Counted from the first letter of the stretch, positions 2,107 to 22,874 are shown. The stretch: 64,000 bases of DNA from Halodesulfurarchaeum sp. (GCA_034520565.1 JAXHNL010000002.1:704001-768000); one strand, 5' to 3'. Made by a program: numbers and translations. The notes: a model not told the origin generated them from the sequence alone.

Positions 2107-2126
2107 GTGGGAGGCGTGGGTCGGCT

Positions 2127-2769: not shown

Positions 2770-2842
2770 GGGCCGGTGGGGTAGCTTGGTATCCTTCGGC
2801 CTTCGGGTGGCCGTAACCGCGATTCAAATTCGCGCCGGCCCA
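2770..2842 (+). tRNA. tRNA-Pro(CGG)
   Basis: Acceptor stem GGGCCGG/CCGGCCC-A; anticodon stem CGGCC-TTCGGGT-GGCCG; T-arm CGCGA-TTCAAAT-TCGCG; no intron; CCA not encoded. Confidence 0.97.
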
Positions 2843-2844
2843 CT
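2830..2844 (+). repeat. attL core, 15 bp TCGCGCCGGCCCACT
   Basis: Exact direct repeat of 22860-22874, which lies about 50 bp downstream of the integrase stop. Confidence 0.88.
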
Positions 2845-2906
2845 ACCTATATACCCCTTTTCCAGCCTTCACTGACAGGTTTAGCGGGTTTTCGGGGGTG
2901 GTCGGT

Positions 2907-3016
2907 TTGAGCGTTTCCGAGGACTCTGAGCCCCTGATCTGCAACTACTGTGGGGAGTACATCGAGGAGCCGATGCAGCGGTGTCCGGCTCTCGATGAGG
3001 GGTGTGTCGGCCATGA
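2907..3016 (+). CDS. Small Cys-rich (CxxC...CPALD) protein; possible C-terminal half of an att-split ORF
   Basis: TTG 2907: SVSEDSEPLICNYCGEYIEEPMQRCPALDEG; one extra G in the G-run would give ...VCRP stop. Confidence 0.55.
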
Positions 3017-3232
3017 GGCTGTAGACGGACCTCCGAAATTGTAAACAGCTGAAATCAGCCTCATCCAGCCCCTCGAACTCGAAAACAGGGCCTCAAATCC
3101 GCCCTGTATACACCCTCCCGGGGTCCCGATTTTCGTCTCGATTCCGCCCCCGGGTGGCCGAAGGCACGCGCAACAGGCGGCCGAGGGCCAGCGGGCGGGT
3201 ACGCGGGCGCGAAGCGGCGGGGTGATCGCGGC

Positions 3233-3580
3233 ATGAGTCTCGCCGATGAAGCGGACGAAGCGCGTTCCGTGGCGGACCTGAAGCCGGGCGACACCGCGCC
3301 GGTTGAGAACCAGGACGGAGGGCATAACCGAGCGATCGTCGCCGTGATCCGGGACGAACCGGCTGGCGAGTGTCAGGTCACGCCGCAGAGACGGGACGCC
3401 CCGATCTCGATCAAACAGCTCTGGCGGCCCGTGTCGATCGGAGCCGATGAGCCGGTCGTCGGCGTCAGGTTTGTGAAGGGCGTCGACTGGGACGGCACGC
3501 CGCTCACGTGGACCCAGCGGATCGCGGATTACCCGGCTTCCCGGGTCATGCAGGTGAATTTCGGGGGTGCCGATCGATGA
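3233..3580 (+). CDS. Hypothetical viral protein
   Basis: 115 aa ORF with GGGGTGA SD-like motif; ATGA overlap with the next gene. Confidence 0.7.
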   Translation: MSLADEADEARSVADLKPGDTAPVENQDGGHNRAIVAVIRDEPAGECQVTPQRRDAPISIKQLWRPVSIGADEPVVGVRFVKGVDWDGTPLTWTQRIADYPASRVMQVNFGGADR

Positions 3581-3942
3581 GCACGACAGTCTCCGCCCGG
3601 ATCTCCGACCCGGATCTCGCCAATCGACTCGACGAGGAGCAGGACCGAAGCCAGGCGATCCGTGATGCGCTCCGGACCTACTACGCCGACGATATCGTCG
3701 ACGTCCCGGTCTCCGGCCGTCCCCGAGACGCCTACGACGAGCTGCTCTCGATCACGAACGGCGGGGGGCTGATCCGCAAGAAGGTCGCGGAAACGGTGCT
3801 CGCCCAGACGGTCGGCCTCGAGAAGTCGATCATCAAGCCGACGATCTTCTTCCCGCTCGAAGAAGCGGGCCTGATCCAGCCCCGCCGGACGTGGCGGGAG
3901 GTGTACCTGCTCGTTCGATCTCCCGAGGAGGTTGATCGGTGA
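3577..3942 (+). CDS. Ribbon-helix-helix (CopG-like) protein with a possible C-terminal wHTH
   Basis: MSTTVSARISDPDLANRLDEEQDRSQAIRDALRTYY is an RHH pattern; ATG overlaps the previous stop. Confidence 0.7.
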   Translation: MSTTVSARISDPDLANRLDEEQDRSQAIRDALRTYYADDIVDVPVSGRPRDAYDELLSITNGGGLIRKKVAETVLAQTVGLEKSIIKPTIFFPLEEAGLIQPRRTWREVYLLVRSPEEVDR

Positions 3943-4070
3943 TGCCCTGGACGATCTACCCCTGTTGCGGGCATCACGAATCGACGCGGAAAATCGGGGC
4001 GGCCCGGCGGCCGGTCTGTCCGGCCTGTGGCTCCCAGCAGCGGCTCGTCGAAGGTGCTACGCCGGCATGA
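3942..4070 (+). CDS. Small CPxCG zinc-finger protein (42 aa)
   Basis: MPWTIYPCCGHHESTRKIGAARRPVCPACGSQQRLVEGATPA; coupled to both neighbours (TGATG and ATGA overlaps); below the ORF-track cutoff. Confidence 0.7.
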   Translation: MPWTIYPCCGHHESTRKIGAARRPVCPACGSQQRLVEGATPA

Positions 4071-4900
4071 TCCGGTTTACCCGGCAAGAGGCCCGATACG
4101 CTCACGGCGACCGGTACGATCGGGGGAGTCGATACAACGAGCGGCACCTTCTGGACGTCGAGATCGAGACCCGCTCGACGAACCGGTTCGTCGTTCGGTT
4201 TTCGACTCCGACGAGGGCCATGTCGTCGATCTCGAAGCGACACCGGACGGCTACGTCGGCGAGTGCACCTGTCCCGATCACGACTATCGCGAGACGGTCT
4301 GCAAACACATGTGGGCGGTCTTCGCGGCTCCCGACGTCCCCGTCATCGATGAGGGCGACGACCGGATCGGGAAACGTCCGACGCGGGCACTCACGGACGG
4401 AGGGACCGCGACCGCCTCGACGTCGACGCCGGCGCCACGACCGAACGGCCAGGCACCGACTCAGGGCGAGCTCGTTGAGGAGTGGATGGCCGACCGGTAC
4501 CCGATTCGGTTGGTCGACTGCGAAATACGACGACGCCCGGCTCACGACCGACACGGGCCTCGCGAGGGAGGGCGCACCGGTCCAAATCAAAGGCTCCCAA
4601 GAGCGGGTCCGAAACGGGTACGACCGAAACGGCAATCAGGAATACACCACCGGGAGGCTCACGGCTTGGCGAAACGAGCTGCTCGAACTCCTGGCCGATG
4701 GCGGGGTCTATCTGATCGGCCTCTACCATCCCGACCGCGATCCTCGAAGCGAGGATTTCGTGACTCGCACTCGATGGATCACGCCGGAGGATTTCGGCGG
4801 CGTCCTCGAGGGCCACTGGACCGAAGGCCACCGGCCGAGCAAGGGCGAAAAGGGGCGGGTTCGCTGGACGGCGGTTCTCGGGGGCGATCCCGATGTCTAA
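4067..4900 (+). CDS. SWIM zinc-finger protein, apparently fused to a PD-(D/E)XK-like domain (2 frameshifts)
   Basis: CTCPDHDYRETVCKH SWIM motif, then GELVEEW...DAR...VQIK; reconstructed across frames 3932 and 4027. Confidence 0.6.
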   Translation: MIRFTRQEARYAHGDRYDRGSRYNERHLLDVEIETRSTNRFVVRFSTPTRAMSSISKRHRTATSASAPVPITTIARRSANTCGRSSRLPTSPSSMRATTGSGNVRRGHSRTEGPRPPRRRRRRHDRTARHRLRASSLRSGWPTGTRFGWSTAKYDDARLTTDTGLAREGAPVQIKGSQERVRNGYDRNGNQEYTTGRLTAWRNELLELLADGGVYLIGLYHPDRDPRSEDFVTRTRWITPEDFGGVLEGHWTEGHRPSKGEKGRVRWTAVLGGDPDV

Positions 4901-5153
4901 GGCGGGACGCCGCCCGTCGACAGCCGACGATCGGCCCCGAGTACCCGCGATCGCGGCCCGGATCGGCGAGGATCCGGCCAAGTACCTGCACGAGCCGGAC
5001 GAAACGACCTTCGCGCTGATTCGGGGCATCGACGACGAGACCCGTCTCGATTGCTGGTTTGCGATCGAGGAGGACCTCGGCCCTCGACCGGAGGTTCTTG
5101 CGGTGCTGAACAAGCGACGGGAGGCCCTGAAGGACGGTGATCGCGATGAGTGA
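4893..5153 (+). CDS. Hypothetical viral protein
   Basis: 86 aa acidic ORF overlapping both neighbours in the same operon. Confidence 0.65.
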   Translation: MSKAGRRPSTADDRPRVPAIAARIGEDPAKYLHEPDETTFALIRGIDDETRLDCWFAIEEDLGPRPEVLAVLNKRREALKDGDRDE

Positions 5154-5614
5154 CGGAGCTTATGAAGATGTTTGTTCCTCAGGCAGAAAATTTTCTGGAC
5201 GAAGCCGCGTTAAGGGAGAGCTCCCGCAGGCGGCACATTCGTTTGGTTTCGTCCGAGAAACATGGGCGTTTTTACAGGCTCTGCACTGGAAAAACTGGTA
5301 TTCCGGTGGCATCGGCACGAGACAATTCGAACAGCTATTACAAATTCATTGCGCCGTCGACGGAAAGATCGTTCCCTCGAGAAACCATATACTCTATGTC
5401 CAGAAAAACAACCCGCGATCGAGTCTGGCTTCATGTGCTCGAAAAGTCCGTCAAGCAAAACGAGGTCGTCACAGCATCAACCGCAGCGCAGGCCGCCGAC
5501 TGTTCGAGGAAAACCGCTCGGGAAGTGCTCAAGGTTATGGACCGTTCCCGCTGGATTCGAGAGCGATCGACCGATACGGGTGTAGAATACCATCCCGAAT
5601 ATCGGCTGGAGTAG
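5150..5614 (+). CDS. Hypothetical protein with C-terminal HTH (may be two genes; second start MSRKTT near 5396)
   Basis: VVTASTAAQAADCSRKTAREVLKVM is a helix-turn-helix pattern. Confidence 0.55.
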   Translation: MTELMKMFVPQAENFLDEAALRESSRRRHIRLVSSEKHGRFYRLCTGKTGIPVASARDNSNSYYKFIAPSTERSFPRETIYSMSRKTTRDRVWLHVLEKSVKQNEVVTASTAAQAADCSRKTAREVLKVMDRSRWIRERSTDTGVEYHPEYRLE

Positions 5615-5618
5615 CACC

Positions 5619-5643
5619 TTCCGATTCTATATTGGAATCGGAA
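5619..5643. promoter_or_regulatory. 9-7-9 inverted repeat; putative recombinase core site or operator
   Basis: TTCCGATTC-TATATTG-GAATCGGAA, perfect arms, 58 bp upstream of the recombinase ATG. Confidence 0.6.
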
Positions 5644-5701
5644 ACTCAACTACCCGAACCGGAGTGGAGTATATAAACAATGGCGGGGGTGAACAGGCCT
5701 A

Positions 5702-6298
5702 ATGACGGATTCGGAAGTTGCGTGGCTCAAGCCTGAGCAGGTTGAGGCGATGCGCGACGTCGCTCACACGGGGCGGAACGGTCACCGTGACGAAGCGCTT
5801 GTCACATTGCTTTATGACACCGGTCTTCGTCGAGCAGAGGCCGCGGCCCTCGATCGGGAAATGCTCGACCTGGATGACGGAACGCTGTTCGTCCCCGGCC
5901 CGATCCAAAAGGACTACCCCAACGACAACTCACCACCACCAGTGACGATGGAGCTCGACCAGTCGGGAGATCTACGTACAGTTCGAACGCTCCGATCCTA
6001 CCTTTCGTGGAGAAACGACGCTCGGTCACCACTATGGACGGGAAGAGCATCACCGCGTTTGTCGGGTAAGAGCATCAACAACGTGGTAAACGTCTCGCCA
6101 AGCGGGCCGACGTCCAGCCTCACCTCCAAGTAGGCCGCGGTGATCCGGAGGACATACTCAGCGCATACGCTCCGCCACTCAATTGCTTACCGCATGCTTC
6201 GCGTCGAAGAAAAGGACATCTACGCGGTGAAGAACCGGCTTAGGCACGCTTCAATCTCGACAACGGACCGAAAGTACGCTCATTTGGATATGGTATAA
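5702..6298 (+). CDS. Short (catalytic-domain-only) tyrosine recombinase, XerC/D-like (frameshifted near 6090-6135)
   Basis: RDEALVTLLYDTGLRRAE; downstream frame SAHTLRHSIAY...RLRHASISTTDRKYAH gives the full R-HxxR-H-Y set. Confidence 0.88.
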
Positions 6299-6320
6299 TG
6301 TCGTAAAAGAATACTTCATC

Positions 6321-6924
6321 TTAGAATGTTGGAATATCCATATTACGATCTTGATTTCCTAAGTGAAACTCAGTAGATTCCGTCATGTCTCTAATATTGT
6401 CTAATATTGAAAACCGCTGTATATCTTCATACGAATTCCCGGCAGCATCCTTATAACTAAATTCGACCACTAGCCTATCGCTACTGTTGTATTCCTCTAT
6501 CTTGTTTTCAATTTTCTTCTCAGTTCCCGAAACGCCAAAATCTGACCCGGAAGGAATTGGAAAATCAAGATTGTATACTTCTTCAGGAAGTACAACCTTT
6601 TTCCCCAGGTCTGATTATCGTCTTCGCTTTCTTCAAGATAAATCAACTAGCAGAGACATCTTGCGCTAATCCACCACCTATATTCACAAACGATAGACAA
6701 AAATTTGGCCCGTGGAAGTTTCTAACAGCTGCCTTTAATTTCGGTTCATAATTCAATTTTCTAGTTTTAGTCATCTCATCGGTTTGTGCGGAGATCTCGG
6801 CTGTTTGGTTTTTCGTCTGTAAATAATATTTCCAAGTTGCTATCGCCAAAACAACAGTAAAGAAGGCAAGAACGACACTTGAAGCAATTTGAATACCGGT
6901 TGCGATCTCGTTAGCAATCACCAT
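6321..6924 (-). CDS. AT-rich cargo protein with N-terminal TM helix (frameshifted)
   Basis: ORF 6643..6924 with a hydrophobic N-terminus; an open frame continues to about 6321 (...VVEFSYKDAAGNSYEDIQRF...). Confidence 0.55.
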
Positions 6925-7124
6925 ACCCAGATCACATTCCCCAATCAGGTATTATTTTTGCTGTTGCAGCATTTAATTAATTGAGAGAAATTGGTCTAAA
7001 AGTAAGTCGTAGCGAAGATACTAAACACGTTACAATCCATCAAGGACCTTGCTCTAAATCATTAATCGGACGATTATCTTACACTCAAAACCTTTTGTAA
7101 GCCGCTAATCATTCACTGGAAAGT

Positions 7125-7533
7125 TCAACCATATATTATATAGGGGCTGCTATTCGCAAAGAAAATCCAGCCACTACAAAAGCAAAACCGAATATCGAGT
7201 CGGCAACATTCATTACATCAAAATATGATTGGCGACGTGAGGGACTTGCAAATCTCTCCAGTCCTTCGCTCAACAAAATCAAGTGAATGAACTCGCATCC
7301 TCAACGCGACGAAAGCCAATAAAGAAGCACCCAATGCCATGAATCCGAGTCCCGTAGTACCGGTGATCTGGTGATACGTATACAATCCCAAAAAGCAAAA
7401 CCATATTCCTAATGCTGCTACTGATTAGAGACTTACACATCAATTGGACTCGGCCAATATTCCGATAAAATGATATTCCTTGGTACAAATGTCCCAATAC
7501 CGTATCTGCAAGAATCAGTCTAATTCGGTTCAT
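7125..7533 (-). CDS. AT-rich cargo membrane protein (frameshifted, 3' end approximate)
   Basis: ORF 7279..7533 plus a downstream hydrophobic frame (...DSIFGFAFVVAGFSLRIAAPIII). Confidence 0.4.
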
Positions 7534-7621
7534 GATTTATTTCAAGATTCGAGATTAAATAAAAGCGTACATTGAAAGGATCGGGGAAATCTTTTCCATA
7601 TTCCAAATCTCTCGAATATTA

Positions 7622-8022
7622 ATGTTTGAAGACACTCCCAATAGCGAGGAACCAGACACTGGGTAGAGGACCGAATTCATGAAATATATAACTATGAGGA
7701 CTTGAAGGATTGCGATATTGATTATCTGCACAATCGCGAATTTGGTTTAAAGGCTAATATGAAAATATTTGAAACGGGTTTTCCTGATGAAGACGTTGAG
7801 GATCATCTTATAGCAATCACAGATGTGGAGGATGATTTTCTGAGTCTAGAAGCGCTTACCCCTGCCGAAAAAATGAGGCTACAATTTCTCAAAATGGAGG
7901 CTGAAAAAGAGATTCACAGGGCAAAAGGTCACCGGATGAATTTGCGAAGGGAACACAGGAACAAAATGGCCAATGCGTTTGCTGACCTGGTGAAGTCAAT
8001 TGGGGATCTAATTCCTTGGTGA
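7622..8022 (+). CDS. AT-rich cargo hypothetical protein (5' part frameshifted)
   Basis: ORF 7702..8022; likely true ATG at 7622. Confidence 0.5.
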
Positions 8023-8166
8023 TTTCGAGCCACCCTCACATTAAATAAAGAACTTTGCTTTCGTACAGTCTGTACGAAAACGGTCGTTTTCGGACGCCCT
8101 CAAATCACTCTCTGAGCGGTTCGAGGGGCCGCATGTCCAATCGGTTACGTTGGTCGGCTGGGCTAT

Positions 8167-8705
8167 TCACTCGGCCCACGACGACTTACGAGAACGGCGA
8201 ATGAGAGATCGCCCTGAACTCAGCAGCGCTCGCAGCTCGACCAGGAAGGGGAAGATTGCCCCGCCCCAGACCCACCCGTCGAGCGGGGTCCACACTCCCA
8301 GGCATGGCTCACGAGATCGTCGAGCGAGACGAGCAGGCCAATCAGCAGCAAACCCCGAAATCCGGGGACTGGAACCGGGAGGAACCCGATTCGCCGGATG
8401 CGAACCCAGGGGTAACGGGCCGCGAAGTCCCCTGCAAACAGAGCCAGAGCGATCGCTGCCAGCCCGACGTGAGAGAACACCGCTCCCACCACGGGGTGAT
8501 GCTCCCAGAGCAGGAAGCCCATCACGGCCACGAGAATCCCGCCCATCACGATCGAGGGCTCACGGTGCCGGTGGTCGTCCTGGACGTGCCAGACACCGTA
8601 CAGCGCGATTCCCAGGCCGATCCAGAAGTGATGGGCCGCGAGGATCGTTGCGTCCGGAGTGCGCTCAGCCGGCCAGGAAAGCGCGGCCAGGGCCAGCTTC
8701 CTCAC
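8167..8705 (-). CDS. Multi-TM protein with HHxxxG...DDxxxH motif (putative intramembrane metallohydrolase)
   Basis: GTG 8705 overlaps the previous stop; AHHFWIG and SLDDLVSHAW; 1-nt indel near 8297. Confidence 0.55.
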
Positions 8706-8974
8706 GGACCGGTGTTGCCCCGGAGTTTGTTCACAATCGCGACCGTATCCTCGCCGATCGCGTAGGTCAGGGCCGCGAGGAAGGCCGCCAGGTAGACCAT
8801 TCCGACCGCCCCGCTCGGCCAGGTCGCCGGGACGGGCTCGAGTGTGAGGGCAGCCATGACCGCCAGCATGAACAGGATGATCGCCCCGGCGGAGAGCGTC
8901 GAAAGCCACTCCCACCGGGTCTTTGCTGTCTCCGTGAGCTGTTCGTCGTCGTTGGTGTTGGAGTTCTCACTCAT
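8702..8974 (-). CDS. Small 2-TM protein, holin-like architecture
   Basis: 90 aa, two hydrophobic helices, charged termini, near the end of the virion operon. Confidence 0.55.
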   Translation of the reverse strand: MSENSNTNDDEQLTETAKTRWEWLSTLSAGAIILFMLAVMAALTLEPVPATWPSGAVGMVYLAAFLAALTYAIGEDTVAIVNKLRGNTGP

Positions 8975-9230
8975 ATTTCCGAGGGGAAGGAACCGCGTCG
9001 GACTGTTTGATCGCCGCCCGATTCGCCCGGCTGATTCGGCGGTTGTCCTGGACGATCTCGATCACGCCGTCGCCGTCGATCTCGTCGGAGCCCTTGAGCA
9101 GTCGCAGGCTCTCCTGGGCCGATTTGCGGGTCTCGAAACCCCATTTCCCGAGTGAAATCGCGACCGTTGCAGCTCCACCGAGGGCACCGCCGAGGGCCGG
9201 GATCGCGATCGAGGCCACGTCTCCCGTCAT
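8967..9230 (-). CDS. Small membrane protein (N-terminal TM plus helical tail)
   Basis: 87 aa, MTGDVASIAIPALGGALGGAATVAISLG. Confidence 0.6.
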   Translation of the reverse strand: MTGDVASIAIPALGGALGGAATVAISLGKWGFETRKSAQESLRLLKGSDEIDGDGVIEIVQDNRRISRANRAAIKQSDAVPSPRKYE

Positions 9231-9622
9231 GCGGCTCTGGCGGCGAGCTCGGCGTAGTCACTCAGCAGAACCAGCACGAGCAGAAGGACGAGAACCCACG
9301 CCCACCACGGGACGGCCCCCGGCTACCGACCCACCGCCGCCGGAGTCCTCGCCAGCGCCGAACGTGTCGCCGAACCAGTCGAGCGGGCCGGTCGACAGTA
9401 GTCCTCCGGGTCCGTTGACTGGCCGCCGTCGTTCTCTGACGACCCACCGGGGAGGTTCTGGCCGCCGTCCACCGTCGGAGCTCCGACACCGCCCGCGTCA
9501 TCGCCCCAGGTGAACGTATCGGCCCACCAGTCCCACGTCGTGTGGCTCGGCTCTTGAGACCCGCCGCCGGGTATCGGGTTGTCGGGTGTGACCGGAAACC
9601 CGATCGAGGTCTGCCGGGTCAC
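9227..9622 (-). CDS. Putative virion membrane protein with C-terminal TM (frameshifted)
   Basis: ORF 9323..9622 with a hydrophobic tail (VLLLVLVLLSDY) in a shifted frame; GTGA overlap with the upstream gene. Confidence 0.5.
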
Positions 9623-10451
9623 CGGTCAGGCCGCCCTCGAGAACCATCACAGCCACCCTGATTAACCGCCAGCGCCCCGCCGCCGATTACCCCGGCGGCG
9701 ATGAGCCAGACCGTCGGACGAGACAAGTTTCCGGCCCCATCGCCCGGGTTTTCGAGGAAGGTAACGATCTCCTCCCGGGCCTGTTCCACGTCCTCCGTCG
9801 AGGTCGGCAGTTCCTCGGGAACGTTGGGCTCACCATCACCGTCGGTGTCGAACAGGTCGGAGTCGTCGTTTCCGGTAAACCACTCGTCGCCGATGATCGC
9901 CTGATCGCCGTCCTCCGTCTCGACGGTTTCCGAGTCGTCCATGTTGTCGAGCCGAGGGTCGTCGTCCGGCAGGGTCGGCACGCTCTCGGGGTCGCTCCGG
10001 CTCCCTGTCGTCGTCCTCGTCGGTCGGGTCGCTGCGAGTTCGGCGTACTCTGGCGCTCCCAGTCGTCGCCGTCGTCCGAGCCGGTGCTACTCGAGGAGCC
10101 GCCGGAGTCGTCCGGGTCGGTCGTCGTGAGCCCGCCGTCGTCGGAGCTGGTCGAGTCCGTCGAATCGGCGGCGTCCTCGATCGAGTCCTGTATGTTTCCG
10201 AGACCGAAACCCGAGTCCGTGGTGTCGTCGTTCACGTCGTCGGGGTCGTCGTACACGTCGTTGGGCTCCGTCTCCTCCGTCGTCTCGTTATCCGACTCCC
10301 ACGAATCGCTCCCCGGCTCCTGCTCGTCCGGGACGTAATCGCGGGGGTCGTCGTCGTACAGGTCGGCGGTGTCGTCGCTCGTGTCCGTCGTCGTGAGCCC
10401 GAAGTCGTCCGTGTCTGTGCTTCCGCCGCCTCCTGTGGGTGCTATGTACAT
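9619..10451 (-). CDS. Asp/Thr/Ser-rich low-complexity virion protein with C-terminal TM (frameshifted near 10010)
   Basis: ORFs 9687..10451 and 9619..9981 join; ends VWLIAAGVIGGGALAV. Confidence 0.6.
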
Positions 10452-10586
10452 CTATTTGCCTCCGTAGTGGTAGATAAGGGCCGCCAGCCCGGCCAGCGCG
10501 ATCGCGGCCAGCATGTTGTCGTTGAGGGTGATGCTCGGGCCCGGTTCGGGGCTTGAATCGGGGATAGATTCAGCGGGGACGGTCAT
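10452..10586 (-). CDS. 44 aa single-TM protein
   Basis: MTVPAESIPDSSPEPGPSITLNDNMLAAIALAGLAALIYHYGGK; ATGA overlap with the spike stop. Confidence 0.6.
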   Translation of the reverse strand: MTVPAESIPDSSPEPGPSITLNDNMLAAIALAGLAALIYHYGGK

Positions 10587-11489
10587 GGTGTAACGATCAC
10601 TCCACTCGTTCCGTTACCTCCATCTCCGCCGTTTCCGCCGTTATCCGAAGTCCCTCCAACACCCCCGGAACCGCCCGAAACCGAGAGGTTCCCGTTATTC
10701 GTATACATCGAGGCAGAAATTTGAATATATCCGCCGTCGCCGCCGCCACCGCCGCCGCCTGCCCCTGCGGCTGACGAGTTTCCGCCATTCGCTCCGTCTC
10801 CGCCCTCTGCGAGAACGCTCCCATTTATTTCAACAGACGGAGCCGACAGGATAATCAGGCCGCCACCGTGGCCTCCGTTCCCACCGTTAGCCCCGCCGTC
10901 ATATTCGTCCCCTCCCCCTCCACCGCCTGCCGCCGCCACTTCCGGCGTAACGGCCGAGGTTTGCGATAGTCAGAGGGAGGATATTGTCGTCTGTCGAGAT
11001 CTTGCAAAACGTCCAATAGCCACGGGTCCGGCGACACAGACTGCCCATCTGCACCATTACCGCCGCTTCCGCTTGCGTCCGAGTCGCCGCCGCCACCCCC
11101 ACCGGCCGATGTGCCTCCATTGCTACCGTTTCCACCGTCTGTACCTCCGCCTCCGCCACCATTTCCACCGCCACCGATGTACCAGCCAGCCGCACCCTGA
11201 TCTCCGGAGTATCCGTTATCGCAACCAGAACTTGAACAACCACTTCCGCCAGAACCACCGCCAGCGACAGCGGTTGCTTGAGTGTCCCATCGATTTTCGA
11301 TTTTCTCGGAGGCCATGATGATCGTCACATCCGGAGATGAAACGGTAACGCCATCCTCTACCGTGTCGGTCTTGCACCCAACTACCCGTTTTTCCGTGGT
11401 TGAGGATGACCGAAACGGTGTCGGCCTCAGACGGCATCCCGTATTTGACCACATGCGCCGCCACCGCCGCCGCCGATAAGTCCCGCCAT
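10583..11489 (-). CDS. Glycine-rich spike / receptor-binding protein (frameshifted)
   Basis: GGxGGxGG tracts with GGGLIILSA and GGYIQISA beta-strands; joins ORFs 10855..11454 and 10583..10939. Confidence 0.7.
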
Positions 11490-11927: not shown

Positions 11928-11928
11928 T

Positions 11929-12646: not shown

Positions 12647-12649
12647 GCG

Positions 12650-13374: not shown

Positions 13375-13377
13375 GAT

Positions 13378-13881: not shown

Positions 13882-13883
13882 CA

Positions 13884-14327: not shown

Positions 14328-14779
14328 ATGACGTCCGCTTCAGACATTGAGCAAACCCTTCTCAGTTCAAATCCATCAGATTGGATATGAATGAGGTCGA
14401 GTGGGGCTTAGCAAATGAAATCGACGAGATGGGTCCCACCCGAGTTGTAGCAGTTTATGAACAAGATGTTCAACTTCGTGTTGAACAAGGAAAGGTGGCT
14501 GTCCAGAACTTCCAAGAAGAATGGAGTGATCGGTACCCAGATAATGAGAATAACACGAGCTTTAGCTTCTGGGTCATTTATGATAGATCTCCAATTGATC
14601 ATCAAGTCATTGCTATCAGTCGATGGCGGTAGAGCATGGATTCCAGTCCCTGACCGCCCTGAATCTCTGACGAACCGTGGACGATTTCCCCGTACAAAAA
14701 CGCAATCGGAGGTGCGGTAAATAGGGACTATTCCTCTTATCAAGATCACCTTAGGAGGGCCGGTATTGAGGTGAGGTAA
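14328..14779 (+). CDS. Lower-GC cargo hypothetical protein, opposite strand to the virion operon (frameshifted)
   Basis: Joins ORFs 14381..14632 and 14457..14720: FQEEWSDRYPD...SVDGGRAWIPVP...HLRRAGIEVR. Confidence 0.55.
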
Positions 14780-14808
14780 CGAAGAATTTCCTTCAATTCA
14801 TCATAACC

Positions 14809-14943
14809 TCAGTCGTGTTCTCGGAGGAGCTCATCGATTACCTTCGGATTTGAAGGTTCGTACCCAAGCTCTTTCGCCAAATCTGCCTTTATCTCTTGAA
14901 ATCGGCTCGCCTGATCGCCGTATAACTTGATATGTTCGACCAT
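14809..14943 (-). CDS. 44 aa putative DNA-binding protein
   Basis: MVEHIKLYGDQASRFQEIKADLAKELGYEPSNPKVIDELLREHD; TAATG overlap with the ATPase stop. Confidence 0.55.
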   Translation of the reverse strand: MVEHIKLYGDQASRFQEIKADLAKELGYEPSNPKVIDELLREHD

Positions 14944-15717
14944 TAGAATGGCTGCGCAAGTTCGTGATCTGATCCACCGAAATGGGGGCTCTGCATGTCG
15001 ATATTGGCCGAATTCTTCCGTACCATCGTCCCCGAATCGTCCGAATAGATCCACTCGGACATGACGACCTGGCCGTTTTCCTCCCGCTTCCGGAGCGGTA
15101 CCGGCCCATCCTCGGAGTGATGCACCGACTCGGGAAGGTCGTAGATCGGGCCGTCGGCCAGGGGTTGTGCACCTCTTCATTGTACTCGGTCCCAAGCCGA
15201 TTTCGATCGCTTCGGTCCTTGAACCCACCGTAGAGGGAGGCGTTCGTCTGCGAGATGACCGTGTTGTGCAGCTCCTGGAAGCCGCTGGGTGATCCAGATC
15301 GAGGAGACGCCACCCCGGCCGGTCGTCGCGAGCAGCTTGATCGCCTCGAGGAGCTTGGACTGTTGATCGGCCACGGAGTGCGCCTCGTCGACGACCACGA
15401 GCCCCTGGCCGTCAAGCAGCCGCATTGCCGCTGCGACGTCCTGCGGCGACCTGCCGCCAGGCGCTGGTCGAGCAGCTCGGGCAGGTGCGGACTGTCCCGT
15501 TCTGTCGAAAGACCTCAGCCCAGGCCTCGGGTGAGGAGCTGTGCCTCCCGGTCGCCTACGGCCACATCGGACGCCAGCCCGCTCTTTACCAGCCCCGAAA
15601 CTCGTCGTTGTAGTCGAGGATCGCGGCGTACTCGACGTCATCGAGGTTGTCTTCGACGGTGGCCTGCCCGACGTCGGATTTGCCCCATCCGCTTTGGGCG
15701 GCGATGAGCTGGCGCAT
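14943..15717 (-). CDS. FtsK-HerA superfamily genome-packaging ATPase (frameshifted)
   Basis: Walker A AQSGWGKS at the N-terminus, ILDYNDEF, Walker B LVVVDEAH, ATTGRG arginine finger, WITQR motif; about 260 aa. Confidence 0.88.
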
Positions 15718-15718
15718 G

Positions 15719-16287
15719 CTACTCGGCGAGTTCTTCGAGGGCGTCCTCGGCCGCCTGAAAGTTCGCCTCGAACACCTTGCACTGGATGGCCGTGGCACCG
15801 ACCCAAGCGACGACCTCGGCGACGAAGGTCCGAAGGTCGACGTCGAACTGCTGCCGGAACGCTGGACGGCGATCTCCGCGTCGGTCATCCCCTCGACCTG
15901 CTCGGGGACCCTGTTCGCGGTACATCTGCCGGCAGTCCCTGATCCGCTGCTCGATCTTCGCCGTCCATTTGCAGGTACTCGACCAGCCGGTCGGGCCCGT
16001 CGACGTGCCCGCCGATTACCGTTGCGGCCCACCGCTCGGCCAGCTGCATTTCTGCGGCGGCTTCGATGAACCCGAGGAGCATGTCCTGGCGGGCGTCGAC
16101 TGGCACCGGGTCGAGATCGACGTCCTGGTCGTGAGCGTCGGCGACCTGATTCACCCGCTCGATCAGCGCGGCCTCGTGCTCGGCGAAAATCCGGGATGGC
16201 CCGTGTCGCGCCCATCTCCGCGATATCGATGGACTGGATGGCCTGCTTGATTGCCTGCTCTTTTGCCGTATTGAAGGGGTTACGCAT
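15719..16287 (-). CDS. Hypothetical viral protein (frameshifted)
   Basis: Starts MRNPFNTAKEQ, ends ANFQAAEDALEELAE; abuts the ATPase. Confidence 0.5.
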
Positions 16288-16792
16288 CGGATCGCACCCC
16301 CGGCAACGTCGGCGGCCACTCGATCGAGGAAGTCGGTCTCGTCACCGATACAGTCCCGGCGATGATAAGGGGAGCCAAATAGGACCTGCTGGCCGGGGTC
16401 CATCTCGCCCATGTCTCGCTCGGCAGCCCACTCGTCGACTGCCTCGTCGAGCCCAAGATCGTGAGCCATCGCCTGGGGATTGGTCCCCTCCATATCCCCG
16501 CCTTGGCGCTTGACGACCGTTGAGAGGAGGTATCCAGCGTCCGGACGTACATCTCACCCCACCCCACGCCGCCCGCTCGGCTGGTCGACTGTGACAGCTC
16601 CTCGGTGGTCTGCTCTTCTTCTCCGTCGGATTCTTCGTCCTCTTCTTCGGCACCGGCCCCGGCCGCCTCCTCGATCTCGTCGGCGACGGCTGAAAGGTCG
16701 GCCATCTCGTCGCCCTCGATCTCGGGAACGTCTTCGTCGACGGTCTCGGGCTCCGGCTGCTCGACGTCGACGTCTTCCTCGGCGGTGCTCAT
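16280..16792 (-). CDS. Acidic protein with C-terminal hydrophobic segment (frameshifted)
   Basis: MSTAEEDVDV...WGEMYVRTL...GLDEAVDEW...QQVLFGSLIIAG. Confidence 0.5.
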   Translation of the reverse strand: MSTAEEDVDVEQPEPETVDEDVPEIEGDEMADLSAVADEIEEAAGAGAEEEDEESDGEEEQTTEELSQSTSRAGGVGWGEMYVRTLDTSSQRSSSAKAGIWRGPIPRRWLTILGSTRQSTSGLPSETWARWTPASRSYLAPLIIAGTVSVTRPTSSIEWPPTLPGVRSDA

Positions 16793-17537
16793 GCCCCAGG
16801 CCGGCTCCATCCTCGGGGAGTTGGCCTCTTGGTCGATGTCTTCGTCGGTCACCATCTCGGTATGGTCGGGATCCTGAGAGGATCGCTCTCCCCGTCGCCC
16901 ATGTAGCGATCGAGAAGGACCAAGATCACGACCAGACCGGCCAAGAGCGAGGGTCGTCTTGTCGACCGAGGGAACGAGCGCCCCGACCGCCCCGGAAAGG
17001 GCCCCTTCAGGGCCCTCGGTGAGCCCCTTCGAAGCGCCTTTCGAAGGGCTGCCGTCCCTGGCTTTGCCTCCCTCGTCGTCGGTCTCCTCGTCGGAGGGGC
17101 CGCTACCGCCCTGACTACCGCCCTGATACTGTGCTCGTTGGCGCTCGATCTCGTCCTCGGTTGGCATGTCGTCGTTTTCAGGGGCCCCTTGCAGGTCCCT
17201 CGTCGGGGCCCTCGTCTTCCCCTTCGAGGTCCCTGCCGTCCCCGGCTTCGGCCCCTTCGTTTTCGGTCTCCTGGTCGGTCGATTCTTCCGAGGGGGCGCT
17301 ACCGCCCTTCTCGGGGGCCCTTGCAGGGCCCTCTTCGGGGCCCTCGGGGGCGCTCTTCGAGGACGCGCCGTCCCCGGCTTTGGGGCCTCGTCCCCTCGGT
17401 CTGTTGCCTCTTCATCGAGACGGGCCCGGATAGCGGCCCAAGGGGTGGTCGTTGCTGGCGTTGACGTGCCCCTGAAGATTGCTTATCGCGGGGAAGTCGC
17501 GGCCGCATTCGGGGCACTTGATGGGTGTCTCAGTCAT
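16789..17537 (-). CDS. C2H2 zinc-finger protein with acidic EGP repeats and a TM segment (frameshifted, ends approximate)
   Basis: MTETPIKCPECGRDFPAISNLQGHVNASNDH; GGGCCC-rich repeats at 17000-17400; hydrophobic stretch near 16920. Confidence 0.5.
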
Positions 17538-17559
17538 TCGATAACTGCGTGCATTGGAT

Positions 17560-17748
17560 TCAATTGAGAAGCCGTCCGAGATAGGCAGCGGCAAGCACCC
17601 GGATTATTTCGCCGTCTGGGGGTTCATCGCCCCAGAGTCGAACGTCCTCCTCGATGCGATCGAGGTCATCGTGGATCTGCTCTTTCGCCGCTTCGAAGGT
17701 TTCCGCCTGATCTTGGTTTGAGAATGCGATCTGCTTCGTTGGACTCAT
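17560..17748 (-). CDS. Small hypothetical protein
   Basis: Intact 62 aa ORF with ATGA overlap. Confidence 0.6.
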   Translation of the reverse strand: MSPTKQIAFSNQDQAETFEAAKEQIHDDLDRIEEDVRLWGDEPPDGEIIRVLAAAYLGRLLN

Positions 17749-18509
17749 CCGGGAGGTCCTCTTTCGTGATTGATTCGCCCCGAGTTCGTCGAACGTGAGG
17801 GTACCTGGCCGTACTGATCGCTGATATCGTTAATCGCCGCAGCGGCTCGTTTGGCCTCGCCCAGGCCGGCTTTGAACTGCGTCCATTGGCTGCTCAGGCC
17901 CTGGTACGGCCCGGAAGCCCACCCGTAGAGGGGTCGGCCTCTTCGTCGTCGAGAATGTTCTCGACCTGTTCCTCGGAAAACCCGCAGGACTCGCTCAGGA
18001 ACTCGCAGGCGTCGGGATCGCCGTGACGGCAGTAGCCTTCGGCGTGGTTGCACTCCTCGGCTTCCGCCGTTCGTGCAGCTCGACCGGCTCGTTCGACCCC
18101 GCTCTCTTCGCTATCGAGTTGCTTTCCGCCGATCGGGTAGCTCGTTCGTCGAAGATCGAGCGGTGTTCGTCGACTTCGAGAGTGGGGTCGAAGTACGACA
18201 GCCAGTCGTAACCCCCTTATCCAGAGCAATCCCCTTCACCGCCTGAGCTTTCGGCACGTTGACGCCGTCTTTCGAAAAGTCCAGCCGGTCGCGCTCCCCG
18301 TCGTCGAGGGGCACCTGACCGGACTTTTCCCCCTCTTCGGCGACCTCATCGAAGGCCGCACGTTCGGCCTCTTCGATCACCCGATTGGGGCCATCGCCCC
18401 GGAATTGGACAGTCTTGAGCCGGGCGTCGTCGTCCGGACAGATCGCGTCGGGATGCTCCTCGCGGAAGTGGTCGGCGGTGGCCTTGTGCTCGAATTCGAC
18501 AGCAGTCAC
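17745..18509 (-). CDS. Conserved-looking viral protein with a Cys cluster (frameshifted)
   Basis: Joins ORFs 18111..18509, 17894..18229 and 17745..18053: GQVPLDDGERDRLDF...DWLSYFDPTLEVDEH...CNHAEGYCRHGDPDACEFL. Confidence 0.55.
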
Positions 18510-18599
18510 AGCCCTTCCCCCGCTCCAATTATGTGCAATTCCTTGGAGATGTGGTGATAGTGGCCCGGACAGTCGGGAACCGGGCAGGCAACAGGCGGA

Positions 18600-18822
18600 T
18601 TACTCGTCGCTCCCATCGGTCTCCTCGACCCACTTGAATTGGCTTTCGTCGGGGTTCTCCTCGGTCGCCGTTCGATGGCTGCGGATCTCTTCGTAAGCGG
18701 CCCACGCGCCGGTTTTGGCGTCGCAGGCCCGTCGCCAGGACCCAATAGGCGACCGCGAAAGCGGCCACGGCGAACACCAAAATCAGCTCACTTTCTCGAA
18801 AATCGAGGCTGTATGTCACCAT
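18600..18822 (-). CDS. First gene of the leftward virion operon, small TM protein (frameshifted)
   Basis: MVTYSLDFRESELILVFAVAAFAVAYWVLA; followed by a tiny CPxxxCxxH ORF ending at 18506. Confidence 0.5.
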
Positions 18823-18842
18823 ACAGTCGGGTGTTTCGACTA

Positions 18843-18862
18843 GATTTGTATAACTTTGTTGT
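18843..18862 (-). promoter_or_regulatory. Putative BRE/TATA promoter of the virion operon
   Basis: Minus-strand AACAAAG-TTATACAA about 25-30 nt upstream of ATG 18822 (leaderless spacing). Confidence 0.5.
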
Positions 18863-19018
18863 AATTAATAGATAAGTTATTAACCACGTTTTGACATGGG
18901 AAACGGACCTAGGTCGCAAAAGTTTAGACGCCCTTCTATCCAATACTGGGCAGTAGAAGGGCCGAAAAGGGGAGATTAGAAAAACCATCCCAATGCTTTT
19001 GCGTTAGGGTAGTGAAGG

Positions 19019-20466
19019 ATGAGTCAGGTAGTAAAGCAAAGTGCAAACTTTCGATGGGAGCTGGGCTTAGAACCCAAATTCCATCTACTCCTAGCAGGAT
19101 GGAAGCAGGAAAAGCATGACCCCAGAAATCCGGACGTTTGAAGAGCGTAAAGAATCGCCAAATCAGGGGAAGAAGCATCTCTAATTGTTCGGGCAAGTAG
19201 CTCACAAACTGATCTTGAGGGTGCTTTAGAGGCAATAGGGGCTGCGGTTAGGCCCATTTCAGATGATCAGTACAAGGTGGTCATGCCGGAAAGCGATCTC
19301 CACCGTTTAGAAGGGATCTCTGGGATTGAGCAGATCGAAATTGAAATCGAAGGGGAGCCTTTAAGAGGGAAACCTGAGCTCCCAGTTCGCTATGATTCAG
19401 TAAGGGATCTGCGAACTGGGTTATTGAGGCATACAGACAGATCTCCAATATTAGCCTCTTATGAGGTCCCTGAGGGAAATGTGGATATTGCCATAGTGGA
19501 TTCTGTGTATGAACTCGAATCTTTGGAAGGTTGGGACCCAGGATTTGACACAATCGCCGAAGAAGATTATACGGAAAGTGACGATGAGGTTTCTACTTCA
19601 ATTCACGGTTGGCATATTTCAAATTTGATCAGTTTCTTTATAGATCCAGAAAGAGTCACTTTTCATACGTACCGTGTGGTCAATGAGGATGAAGAAGAAT
19701 CAATGAATCAAGTCTAATCGAGGCTATAAAGTCGGCCCGAGATGATGGGGTCGATTTGATTAATCTATCAGTAAGTTTTGATCATATTGGTTCAAGGGTT
19801 AAACAATGCACACCTACTTCAACAATTGTGGTATATGCTCACGAGATAAGAAAAGCAATAGAAGATGGGATTACAGTCGTAGCTGGTGCAGGGAATGATT
19901 CAACATCTGAGAAGACATCCTGTCCAGGCGCGGTAGATGAAGTCATCGCTACAGCAGGTTACATCCCAAAGTGTCCCAATGGGCCCACTGGACCAGGATC
20001 AATCTGGATGTATTATGACGATGACGAAATAGAGGCAGACCCATTGGGAATGACACCAATTTGTAGTATGCAAGGGTGTGGCTATACCGAAATGTGTTCT
20101 GAAAATAGGGAGGATATTTATTGGGAGAATAATTCCGAACATGAAGGGAATAAGCCCGATGTGGCTGCCCCAGCAGCAATAATCATGGGGGGTGAACACG
20201 TTTCAGTTAATCCCGGGTTTATTGGTGGGACGAGTTATGCTGCTCCTATTGTAACTGCACAAATAGCAAATTGGTTACCTGTGTTCAAGTTTGAAGATAT
20301 CACATTAATACCCCAAGAAATCAGAAACGGTATTCGAGCGGCAAATAAAGATTTGGATACTGGGGAAAACCTAAAATTCGACGGAATTAGTGCATTCGAA
20401 GAGATAGGAGCGACATATAACATTCAACACGAAGAGTCCTCGGTTGATCTTCATCAGCCCCGTTGA
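19019..20466 (+). CDS. Subtilisin-like serine protease (S8), AT-rich cargo (frameshifts near 19170 and 19715)
   Basis: Asp IAIVDS, His IHGWHIS, oxyanion VVAGAGND, KPDVAAP, Ser GGTSYAAPIV; prodomain-like N-terminus; no signal peptide seen. Confidence 0.85.
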
Positions 20467-20479
20467 GAATTCCGGATTC

Positions 20480-20764
20480 CTAGCCGAACCCCTCAATACC
20501 CGATCCACAGTCGGCAGGCCGGTACCTCGCGTCGATCTCCTCCTGGAGGTAGAGCTGCCGTTCATCGTGAGCTCGTACATCTCGTTATGAATCGGCGCGA
20601 TCATGCCGGCGTACTGGAGTCTTCCACCGCTCCCCGATCCGTCCCGTCGAAGCGGTGAACTCTATCGCTTCGGCCATCATCGTCGGCGTTCCCCAGCCTT
20701 CACTGTCGAGGTGCTCGAGGATGCGTTCGTCGACTTGCTCCATCCAGTGAGCCGACCGTCTCAT
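20480..20764 (-). CDS. PhiH1-repressor-like winged-HTH protein (frameshifted)
   Basis: MRRSAHWMEQVDERILEHLDSEGWGTPTMMA...YAGMIAPIHNEMYELT. Confidence 0.7.
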
Positions 20765-21072
20765 ACGTGATTTTCGTCCTCGGAGGCAGTTGGTCCGGGG
20801 ATTCGTCGACCTCTGGGATCTCGTGGGGCGTCTTCGGCGGTGTTGATCTCGCCGTCGAGATATCCTCTCCCGTTCGGTAATGGTGTAGACTCCGTTTCCA
20901 GAGATCGTTTGGAAGACCGTGTTTAGCGGTTTTCAGAGCCCGTTGGGAGGTGTCCCCGAGTGTACTGGATACCCGCGTCCACCATTTCTTTAGGCCGGCC
21001 TGAGCCATTTTCGCGGATATATTCGAGAATCCGGTCGTCTGCCAAAACCATCCAATCTCCCGATCTTCTCAT
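20761..21072 (-). CDS. PhiH1-repressor-like winged-HTH protein (frameshifted)
   Basis: MRRSGDWMVLADDRILEYIRENGSGRPKEM...GVYTITERG. Confidence 0.75.
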
Positions 21073-21147
21073 TAGTAAATAATTAACTACTCGGGGGATA
21101 TTGTTGTTTGGGTGGGTGAACCCTCTATCCTTAGATCGGTAAACCAT

Positions 21148-21173
21148 CCGCCGATAGTTATATTAATCGGCGG
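21148..21173. promoter_or_regulatory. Operator-like inverted repeat enclosing a TATA box
   Basis: CCGCCGAT-AGTTATATTA-ATCGGCGG in the divergent intergenic region. Confidence 0.6.
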
Positions 21174-21192
21174 TTAATTGTTTGCTAACGCA

Positions 21193-21393
21193 ATGGCTCG
21201 AAGAAGCCTATCGGTGTCCATCTCCATGCCGGTCGAGATGGACGGAAAACTGGCAGAAGAGGCCCGAAGACACGGGATGAGCTACTCGGAATATGTCAGG
21301 CACATCCTGAGAGAGCACGCGATCACTCCGTTCAATTCGCCGAGCATTTCGCTCGAAGAATTGGAGTCAGAACGTCAGGAGGGGGCTGCCTGA
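21193..21393 (+). CDS. Ribbon-helix-helix regulator
   Basis: SVSISMPVEMDGKLAEEARRHGMSYSEYVRHILRE. Confidence 0.85.
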   Translation: MARRSLSVSISMPVEMDGKLAEEARRHGMSYSEYVRHILREHAITPFNSPSISLEELESERQEGAA

Positions 21394-21474
21394 ACCATGT
21401 GCACTGGTGGAGCCCCCAGTCCAAGAACGGCGAGCACGGCCGTAAAACCTCCGGCGAGGAGATAATCGTCGCCG

Positions 21475-21762
21475 GTGACGAGGGCGAGATTTTGGAGGCC
21501 TGAAATGAGGGGCGCACCCCTCACGTACGACGAGCCCGACGCCCGAGCGCGACGGGCACGGTCCCGCTTTGCCGGGTCGTCGGGTCGACCATGTACGTCC
21601 CGAAAAACGCCTGCCCCTACTGCGGCGAGGAAGGCGGTCGGGATGCGTAACTGCACCCATCCGGTGATCCAGTACGACGAACGCGAGGAGCCCTACTGCG
21701 GCGCTTGTGGGGCGATGCTGGGGCATCGCTCCGCGTCCGATATCGGGATCGCCGAGACATGA
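21475..21762 (+). CDS. Small CxxC zinc-finger ORF(s) upstream of the integrase
   Basis: ACPYCGE and PYCGACG motifs in different frames; ATGA overlap with the integrase start. Confidence 0.45.
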   Translation: MTRARFWRPEMRGAPLTYDEPDARARRARSRFAGSSGRPCTSRKTPAPTAARKAVGMRNCTHPVIQYDEREEPYCGACGAMLGHRSASDIGIAET

Positions 21763-22808
21763 CCGATGGAGAGACGTCGCGACGATCCGACCGACCTCTC
21801 CCTCGAAAGCGGTATCCCGGTATCTCCACGTCGAGCCCCGGACTCGACCGAGAAGAGCATTCACGGGTGGGAGTACCGCCTGAAACCTTCGTCGAGTGGT
21901 GCGAGCCGTCGGGATCGAGCGGTCGGCGAGCTGCGCCGGTACGATCTCGACGAATACTACGAGCTCCGGAGCGCGGAGATCGCGCCGGCCACCCTCGAGG
22001 GCGAGATGTGGACGCTCAAGATGTTCGTCGACTTCCTGGGTGATATCGGGGCCGTGGAGTCCGACCTGGACGAAGCGGTTCGTATCCCCGATATCGACCC
22101 CGAGGATCGATCGAACGATACGAAGCTCGAAACCGACGCCGCACTTGCCCTGATCCAGTATTATCGGGATTCCCCGAAAACTACGCGACTCGGGCCCACG
22201 CATTCCTCGAACTCCGGCGTCGACGGGGCCCGGCAGGGCGGCCTCCGGGCGCTCGATATTCGCGACGCCGAGCTGGATGACAACCCGTACGTTTACTTCC
22301 GGCACCGGCCGGAGCAGGGCGCCCGCTCAAGAACAAACGGAGCGGCGAGCGGCCCGTGGGACTCACGTCCGAGACGGCCGACGTGATACGGGCCTCGTCG
22401 ATGGGCGCCGGTACGGTCCACGACGACCAGGGGAGGCAGCCCCTACTCGCGAGTGCCAAAGGACGCCCGACGTCGAACACGTTTCGAAATTGGACTACAT
22501 GGCAACTCAGCCGTGTCTTCACTCGGCCTGTCCGCACGGGAGGAACCGGGAGACGTGCAAATTCGTCGCCACAACCACGCTTCGATACCGAGTTCCCGAA
22601 GTCCGCACCAAATTCGAACCGGGACGATCACCTGGCTGTTGAACCTCGGCTGGCCGCCGCAAGACGTCGCCGAGCGTGTCAATGCCAGCGTGAAAACGAT
22701 CGGAAGCATCACGACAAGGCCGATCCCGACGAGCGCCGCCGTCGGCTTCTCGATCGAATGGAGGATCGACGTCGACCACTCGTTAACAGTCTCAAAATAG
22801 CACAATGA
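21759..22808 (+). CDS. SNJ2-family tyrosine integrase (multiple frameshifts)
   Basis: GARQGGLRALD, FRHRPEQG, TQPCLHSACPHGR, PSSRSPHQIRTGTIT, ERVNAS, C-terminal RMEDRRR; att repeat just downstream. Confidence 0.9.
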
Positions 22809-22859
22809 CATTACCAAAATCGCAACATCTGCACGCACCGCCACGAAACCGATTCCACG

Positions 22860-22874
22860 TCGCGCCGGCCCACT
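22860..22874 (+). repeat. attR core (15 bp)
   Basis: Exact match to 2830-2844. Confidence 0.85.

Follow-up and report, generated by a model that had tools for sequence, protein, structure and literature searches.

A 64,000-nucleotide stretch of the Halodesulfurarchaeum sp. genome, here called the window, very probably holds at positions 2830-22873 a provirus of the SNJ1 group, a Simuloviridae-like virus of the order Halopanivirales that is integrated in a tRNA-Pro(CGG) gene and probably intact, with frameshifts that are errors of the consensus sequence. The window is 704001-768000 of contig C2 in a two-contig assembly of 1.86 Mb (G000; GC content 62.5%, rated 80.7% complete). What is new in the element is its lifestyle, which is unlike that of the three classified members of the family, while its being hidden by frameshifts is an assembly artefact. 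The gain for virology is modest, in that an integrated, integrase-bearing relative is added to the Simuloviridae.

Capsid proteins and packaging ATPase

The gene map (Table 1) was obtained by aligning to the window, with a dynamic programme permitting frame changes, the proteins of a related provirus in genome G002, whose host is of the same family but another genus. The leftward structural module spans ~18524 to ~8221, close to the operon of 18822 to about 8170 proposed in the initial annotation of this DNA, and the ATPase, the protein with two transmembrane (TM) segments, both capsid proteins and the TM-anchored, 122-amino-acid and glycine-rich proteins all lie where they had been placed. 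When proteins of the simulovirus HJIV-1 were searched against the window with tblastn, matches were obtained to the ATPase (E 1e-15), the small (4e-8) and large (1.6e-18) major capsid proteins (MCPs) and the structural protein ORF16 (3e-23), each of them divided over two frames. BLASTN of 7 kb against a phage collection gave a single match of 160 nt, to HJIV-1 (Simuloviridae), and Pfam searches of the module gave sub-threshold matches only (VP16-like, E 0.07; AAA_22, 0.001).

The initial annotation had tied its viral reading to the grouping of the ATPase and to a capsid fold in the region 12650-13881, and both points held. Searched against the phage collection, the G002 ATPase matched viral packaging ATPases only, all 15 records being Halopanivirales ATPases; the best match was SNJ1 (39.9% identity, E 2e-50), followed by HJIV-1 and NVIV-1 (35.7%), with 26-29% to HCIV-1, HHIV-2, PH1 and SH1. 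Residues 7-14 and the letters VVVDEAH, both seen in the alignment, are what we take to be the Walker A and Walker B motifs. The SNJ1 "major capsid protein PB7" is homologous to the small MCP of G002 (E 8.7e-26).

Capsid structure was examined on the intact G002 orthologues, as a proxy for the frameshifted genes of the window. AlphaFold models of the two MCPs, made from alignments of 34 and 23 homologues, had pLDDT (predicted local distance difference test) values of 92.3 and 93.1 and were searched against the PDB with Foldseek. The large MCP model gave seven matches at E <= 0.001, belonging to P23-77 VP17, HHIV-2, HCIV-1 and SH1 (E 1e-10 to 4e-9, TM-scores 0.59-0.72), and the small MCP model was topped by HCIV-1 VP7, SH1 ORF24 and P23-77 VP16 (E ~1e-8, TM-scores ~0.6-0.7), so that the top matches are only to capsid proteins of Halopanivirales. 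The fold search was required because sequence-only PDB matches were marginal: for the large MCP 6qt9 at E 0.049 with a single sequence and 0.21 with a profile, where an unrelated chain came first, for the small MCP 3zmo, 6qt9 and 6h9c at 0.013-0.17, and for the ATPase a HerA chain at 0.017. The models thus support predicted jelly-roll folds in the capsid proteins of the window. The two features by which Halopanivirales are recognised are both present, namely two single-jelly-roll MCPs, by way of the G002 orthologues (63% identity for the large and 58% for the small), and an FtsK/HerA-type packaging ATPase related to those of the order.

The order of genes is that of SNJ1 (Saline Natrinema sp. 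J7-1 virus 1, the type member of Simuloviridae, genus Yingchengvirus), with the ATPase followed by a small open reading frame (ORF), the two-TM protein, the small MCP, the large MCP and a TM-anchored protein. The conserved two-TM gene between the ATPase and MCP genes, in the place of SNJ1 VP6 and SH1 VP12, would be consistent with a tailless virion with an internal membrane. The leftward operon would then build the virion: the two single-jelly-roll capsid proteins would form pseudo-hexameric capsomers, the small membrane proteins would line the internal membrane, the ATPase would package the DNA, with the variable genes at the distal end as candidates for the vertices. By their position alone, the acidic and glycine-rich proteins (9619-11689) are candidates for vertex or spike. 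Homologues of the 122-amino-acid protein, a penton candidate, are present in all eight related elements.

Taxonomic placement

The identity comparison and the trees comprised 14 sequences, the P23-77 outgroup not being included. Between the window and SNJ1, identity is 40% in the ATPase, 36% in the small MCP and 33% in the large MCP, and between SNJ1 and HJIV-1 or NVIV-1 it is 36-37%, 35-37% and 37-39% respectively. The corresponding values for the window and HJIV-1 or NVIV-1 are 33-34%, 32-34% and 38-39%, and all simulovirus-like sequences have 14-32% identity to SH1 and HCIV-1 in core proteins. The ATPase tree and the concatenated tree both unite the three classified simuloviruses and nine proviruses in one clade (support 100 in each), which stands apart from SH1 and HCIV-1; the window is placed beside G002 (100), and the inner branching is not resolved.

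By its sequence the element is simulovirus-like and not a new family, because its identity to SNJ1 matches that among the genus-mates of SNJ1 and because it lies within their clade. Its core proteins cluster with those of SNJ1, HJIV-1 and NVIV-1, and ATPase, MCP folds, gene order and clade agree with the simulovirus-sized member of Halopanivirales proposed initially; the novelty at family level that had also been considered does not stand, the identities being like those of genus-mates.

[quoted passage not shown] The element instead lies in the chromosome between attachment (att) repeats and has an integrase. Its excised size of 20.03 kb, for a form predicted to be circular, is just above the range of the family.

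Integration site

The sequence TCGCGCCGGCCCAC, which is the last 14 nt of tRNA-Pro(CGG), occurs exactly at 2830-2843 (attL) and at 22860-22873 (attR), 20,030 bp from att to att. Allowing at most one mismatch, the window has three matches where 0.16 would be expected, and three were not reached in any of 100 shuffles. The att repeats expected at both ends are thus borne out by an exact pair, the right end being at 22873 and not at 22874. The layout is that of tRNA-targeting tyrosine integrases, with a recombinase gene next to an att repeat in which the tRNA 3' end is duplicated, and the integrase gene lies 55 nt from attR.

The third copy (23000-13) is external to the element, 118 nt right of attR. 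The copy at 22860-22873 is probably the working attR, and the outer copy with the 118 nt a relic of an older integration, because similarity to the host flank of G002 resumes at 23007. The G002 element occupies the orthologous tRNA-Pro(CGG), with two upstream host genes that are the same as in the window, and a copy of a 13-nt att core lies ~19.95 kb off, 48 nt behind the integrase gene. G002 also has a degenerate counterpart of the outer tRNA-end copy (window 22874-23012) at the same place, and host synteny restarts there.

In the proposed mechanism, recombination by the tyrosine integrase would take place between a viral site and the tRNA-Pro(CGG) gene of the host, at its 3' end; the tRNA would be rebuilt at attL, and the 14 nt displaced in this way would come to lie at attR, next to the integrase gene. 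After excision, the circular form would be 20,030 bp.

The presence of two tyrosine recombinases, a low-GC junction at 6236-8220 and three copies of the tRNA end could also be read as two tandem elements, one from 2844 to ~6300, where the short recombinase ends, and the virus proper from ~6300 to 22860 with its own integrase. In line with this, tblastn found the short recombinase and the SWIM protein of the left arm in G002 and the window only, and in none of the other seven related elements. Such a composite is nevertheless very improbable, since the two parts are not separated by an att copy, the third copy is outside the element and not within it, and G002 has the same collinear layout inside a single att pair. 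A SWIM protein, ORF8, is likewise encoded by the classified simulovirus HJIV-1 and matches the left arm at 4207-4323 (E 1.7e-7). A single provirus remains the preferred description of 2830-22873.

Nature of the frameshifts

Alignment of 18 element genes with the G002 proteins required 56 frame changes in 2914 codons and showed no in-frame stop. One surplus base was found in 25 of the changes and two in 31, the simplest explanation of the latter being one missing base; two weak alignments (scores 82 and 36) add one change each, giving 58. This corresponds to about one +/-1 change per 156 nt. The same aligner gave no frame changes in three of the element genes or, as a control, in 521 codons of two host genes left of the tRNA (59% and 71% identity). 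A codon-usage Viterbi decoder, trained with 358 long G000 ORFs, switched frame every 100-300 nt from ~2900 to 22400, and from 23738 its segments are mostly 800-2800 nt long. The hallmark genes are thus fragmented in the ORF track, as had been observed initially.

This fragmentation is shared with the host. Run over the whole genome, the decoder found only two other 10-kb stretches that are as dense in frame switches, C2:~911800-918500 and C2:~1303200-1313100, which are matched at E <= 1e-20 in 48 and all 56 of the 56 family genomes. The blocks of G000 have 55-57 segments per 10 kb against 22-26 in the orthologous stretches of relatives. Four Pfam-confirmed genes in these blocks outside the window are broken in the same manner: SecY (9 frame changes, 424 of 481 residues identical), ribosomal protein S4e (18; 164 of 255), enolase (11; 334 of 394) and a MoaA-like radical-SAM protein (7; 267 of 359). 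A GHMP kinase that adjoins a block, likewise confirmed by Pfam, has no frame change (275 of 327 identical), and all five alignments lack in-frame stops. SecY, S4e and enolase cannot be pseudogenes, and the two blocks are therefore defects of the consensus, because the organism cannot live with these genes so broken.

Further evidence comes from contigs of short reads from a salt-pan metagenome, where three sequencing runs contained shares of 0.12, 0.03 and 0.00 of the window words. The contigs were compared with window 1-20000, and the parts of the provirus that they do not cover are uninformative. An extra T is present in one contig behind 18208, where a change was predicted at 18205, and another contig lacks the base at 15280, the predicted site being 15278; both differences restore a frame like that of G002. 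None of the gap-free contig pieces listed crosses a predicted frameshift site, and the sequence contexts printed, with positions known to a few nt, show no clear homopolymer pattern for the indels.

The provirus frameshifts are almost certainly errors of sequencing or assembly rather than biology, because the same indel-only signature is found in the host blocks and because, at two sites, the frame is restored in contigs of short reads. As the element forms one of three poor-consensus blocks, the actual provirus is probably intact. The alternative, biological frameshifts in a dead provirus undergoing decay, its genes inactivated through numerous small indels, is most improbable. It takes the 56 frame changes of the sequence as given, and it would suit both the coincidence of the frameshift block with the element, between two unbroken host genes on the left and unbroken coding from 23738, and the shallower provirus contigs in the salt-pan run. 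Neutral decay should, however, bring nonsense substitutions too, and there are none in the aligned codons; the ATPase retains 85% identity to its G002 counterpart, the indel-only pattern recurs in SecY, S4e and enolase, and the short-read contigs are in frame at two sites.

The advice to correct the indels, given in the initial annotation, was apt, but the frameshifts do not characterise the virus, since the same defect hits essential host genes. Uncorrected blocks of +/-1 indels break essential genes and the provirus in this assembly, and gene callers miss or split genes there; because essential genes are broken as well, "pseudogenised" features of the assembly should not be read as biology. 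The blocks probably also depress the completeness estimate of 80.7%. We infer that they sit where short-read polishing or assembly tends to fail, that is in a strain-variable provirus and in highly conserved operons.

In the salt-pan contigs the host flank is identical to the window at a depth of 5-8 and the provirus pieces have a depth of 2-3, as taken from contigs, which the tool flags as a poor depth measure. If the integrating branch of simuloviruses proposed below is real, the lower depth would mean that only a part of the salt-pan population has the provirus and that it is still mobile.

Integrity and activity of the provirus

Some observations weigh against an intact SNJ1-group provirus. 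The fold predictions for the capsid proteins concern the G002 orthologues rather than the broken genes of the window itself. Only two of the 56 frameshift sites could be checked, in metagenome contigs rather than in the source reads of the assembly, and the contig that lacks the base at 15280 has eight substitutions nearby, which makes it a related variant and weaker evidence. Among the G002 proteins scanned, none was recognised as a replication initiator of a Rep family. A switch of the MazE/AbrB type, as ORF4 of SNJ1, was not recognised either, HJIV-1 ORF2 and ORF3 giving E values no better than 0.2. The att pair, the homologies, the gene order and, on the orthologues, the capsid folds are shown; that virions assemble, that the element excises and that it is active is what we infer.

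In the searches against the window, HJIV-1 RepA gave no match in the element (best E 0.78, elsewhere in the window), and the AbrB/MazE protein ORF3 of HJIV-1 gave E 0.5 or worse. Instead of the MazE/AbrB-type regulator, the element has a CopG/ribbon-helix-helix (RHH) protein and two winged-helix-turn-helix (wHTH) proteins.

The lack of a recognised RepA or other replication initiator and of an SNJ1-like lysis-lysogeny switch would also fit an intact-looking but inactive or domesticated provirus, which has lost for instance replication or lysis functions and persists only as a chromosomal island, and the three low-GC cargo inserts that interrupt the module point in the same direction. This is unlikely considering that conservation and collinearity with G002 and SNJ1 extend over the entire structural module, that the related elements in 9 of 56 family genomes have the patchy distribution typical of mobile proviruses, and that NVIV-1 likewise lacks RepA (ICTV profile). 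The preferred reading is still that of a probably intact provirus.

Related elements and closest known systems

A DNA search of 56 genomes of the host's family, G000 itself counted, rendered eight related elements in the 55 other genomes, that is nine of 56 with the window. The match to G002 is 75% over 3.6 kb and 71% over 1.5 kb, with weaker matches in the capsid region in seven more genomes (G053, G052, G016, G019, G029, G018 and G032). Six of the nine elements (five of eight without the window) are beside a tRNA-Pro gene with anticodon CGG or TGG, and such proviruses are accordingly common in another haloarchaeal family. Instead of tRNA-Pro, a tRNA-Val is within reach in G016 and a tRNA-Lys in G018. 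An integrase 50-55% identical to that of G002 was found in seven of the nine slices, and the two slices without one are only 19.9 kb long.

The element and its eight relatives may constitute an undescribed integrating branch of simuloviruses, a proposal that we hold only tentatively: integrase-dependent, mostly in tRNA-Pro genes, without RepA and with a second, Xer-like recombinase in one sublineage. If this is true, the episomal rolling-circle lifestyle is one of two in Simuloviridae, and integration is the commoner in nature.

The G002 provirus shares with the window its site, host flank, 13 of 14 nt of the att core, collinear genes and both recombinases. It is of similar length (~19.95 kb), with identities of 85% in the ATPase, 63% in the large MCP and 58% in the small MCP. 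Unlike the window, it has all genes intact, lacks the 0.6-kb low-GC insert behind the ATPase gene, and has two extra genes in the left arm (306 amino acids, and 150 amino acids with DUF6884) as well as other cargo and distal structural genes. Its large MCP is identical to an NCBI protein named [quoted passage not shown] and its small MCP to one named "VP7/VP16-like Major capsid protein".

SNJ1 has in common with the window a pair of single-jelly-roll MCPs and the packaging ATPase besides the gene order, but it is 16.5 kb long, has a plasmid state and carries a rolling-circle RepA (ICTV profile). The window element, on the other hand, lies in the chromosome, carries a second recombinase besides its integrase, gives no RepA match and resides in a host of another family. 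HJIV-1 and NVIV-1, also of the genus Yingchengvirus, share the ORF16-like structural protein and the SWIM protein with the window but are episomal, 17-19 kb long and found in Natrialbales hosts, and the HJIV-1 record has no annotated integrase. More distant are SH1, HHIV-2, PH1 and HCIV-1 together with the alphasphaerolipovirus-like integrated proviruses HalaCibP1, HalaPauP1 and HaloLacP1, which belong to the same order and have the same capsid folds; these SH1-side systems differ in having only 15-28% identity in the core proteins, linear genomes of ~30 kb and another gene order, with the ATPase on the other strand. In SH1 the ATPase gene lies apart and on the opposite strand, in contrast to the order in the window and SNJ1.

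A literature search found no description of integrated simulovirus-like proviruses at tRNA-Pro or of the G002 element, the supplementary provirus tables being outside its scope. Integrated relatives of pHH205/SNJ1 (HaloMukP1, HaloMukP2 and IHP) were described around 2009-2014. These three have been used in phylogenies. On the alphasphaerolipovirus side of the order, proviruses that are integrated and have both an integrase and a tRNA have already been described.

Gene content of the element

Table 1. Features of the provirus and its ends in window coordinates (aa, amino acids; identity is to G002 proteins)
Feature	Coordinates	Strand	Frame changes	Evidence or remark
tRNA-Pro(CGG)	2770-2843	+		ARAGORN, sole tRNA in window; last 14 nt (2830-2843) are attL
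SWIM zinc-finger protein, left (early) arm	4070-4897	+	2	162/271 identical to 283-aa protein
85-aa conserved protein	4893-5138	+	0	Intact; 60/82 identical; without Pfam family
Second tyrosine recombinase, 198 aa, catalytic domain only	5702-6295	+	2	164/197 identical
Low-GC insert, small orphan ORFs	6236-8220			GC ~0.40; non-coding by host codon model
Small membrane/TM protein, distal end	8681-8301	-		tblastn to G053 and G002 proteins
Small membrane/TM protein, distal end	8974-8702	-		tblastn to G053 and G002 proteins
Small membrane/TM protein, distal end	9230-8970	-		tblastn to G053 and G002 proteins
Acidic (D/E/T-rich) and Gly-rich proteins	11689-9619	-		Fragmented frames; without close homologue; Gly-rich stretch 11689-10583
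122-aa beta-rich protein, penton candidate	12297-11932	-	0	Intact; 56/112 identical to 121-aa protein
83-aa protein, C-terminal TM anchor	12646-12398	-		tblastn to 70-93 aa proteins of G002, G053, G052; position of SNJ1 gp28
Large MCP, ~239 aa	13374-12662	-	7	144/226 identical
Small MCP, ~167 aa	13881-13381	-	5	99/163 identical
Two-TM membrane protein, 96 aa	14171-13911	-	2	71/86 identical; position of SNJ1 VP6, SH1 VP12
Low-GC insert of ~0.6 kb, ATPase-to-membrane-protein gap	14193-14800			Absent from G002; without Pfam match
~44-aa ORF	14809-14940	-		Directly behind ATPase gene; 48-aa homologues in G053 and G052; place of SNJ1 gp24
Genome-packaging ATPase, 257 aa	15717-14946	-	5	217/255 identical; phrog_2666 2.8e-28
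p189	16287-15722	-	4	G002 alignment
p171	16792-16296	-	3	G002 alignment
C2H2-Zn/acidic/TM protein	17537-16882	-	4	G002 alignment
p69	17736-17537	-	1	G002 alignment
252-aa structural protein	18524-17753	-	5	HJIV-1 ORF16 "putative viral structural protein" E 3e-23; phrog_22825 6e-22
Low-GC cargo	18841-20527	+		146-aa orphan 19277-19717; S8 subtilase fragment 19756-20466
Winged-helix protein	20743-20528	-	2	wHTH families match 100-aa protein
Winged-helix protein	21072-20833	-	3	wHTH families match 100-aa protein
CopG/RHH protein	21178-21393	+		RHH_1 at 1.3e-5; with winged-helix pair, regulatory region 20528-21393
Tyrosine integrase, ~353 aa	21769-22805	+	10	243/339 identical to integrase (intact, 353 aa)
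attR	22860-22873	+		Exact 14-nt copy of tRNA 3' end
Outer tRNA 3'-end copy	22992-23012	+		21 nt exact; host-flank similarity to G002 resumes at 23007

The integrase of G002 matches PF00589 at 2.5e-10. Its short recombinase matches the same family at 7.7e-23 and a XerA-like NCBIfam model at 2.1e-23, and this second enzyme may serve to resolve circular-genome dimers. The short Xer-like recombinase, at L014 5984-6580 in G002, is 83% conserved between that genome and the window, which is above the capsid proteins. The SWIM protein of G002 matches PF04434 at 3e-7. In the distal region 8301-9230 of the structural module, an 85-amino-acid protein of G002 aligns over 52 of 84 residues with no frame change.

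The three low-GC inserts, all with orphan ORFs, have a GC content of 0.40-0.50 against ~0.65. Three ORFs of the insert at 6236-8220 have no Pfam or PADLOC matches, and for the insert behind the ATPase gene BLASTN shows that window 14835-14213 corresponds to 67 nt in G002. In the rightmost insert, the S8 subtilase fragment matches PF00082 at 2.2e-9 over profile positions 115-267 of 288 and is without a homologue among longer proteins. A role in defence is not claimed for it, the PADLOC subtilase match being weak (1e-4). The fragment and the 146-amino-acid ORF may be one gene that has been split by error.

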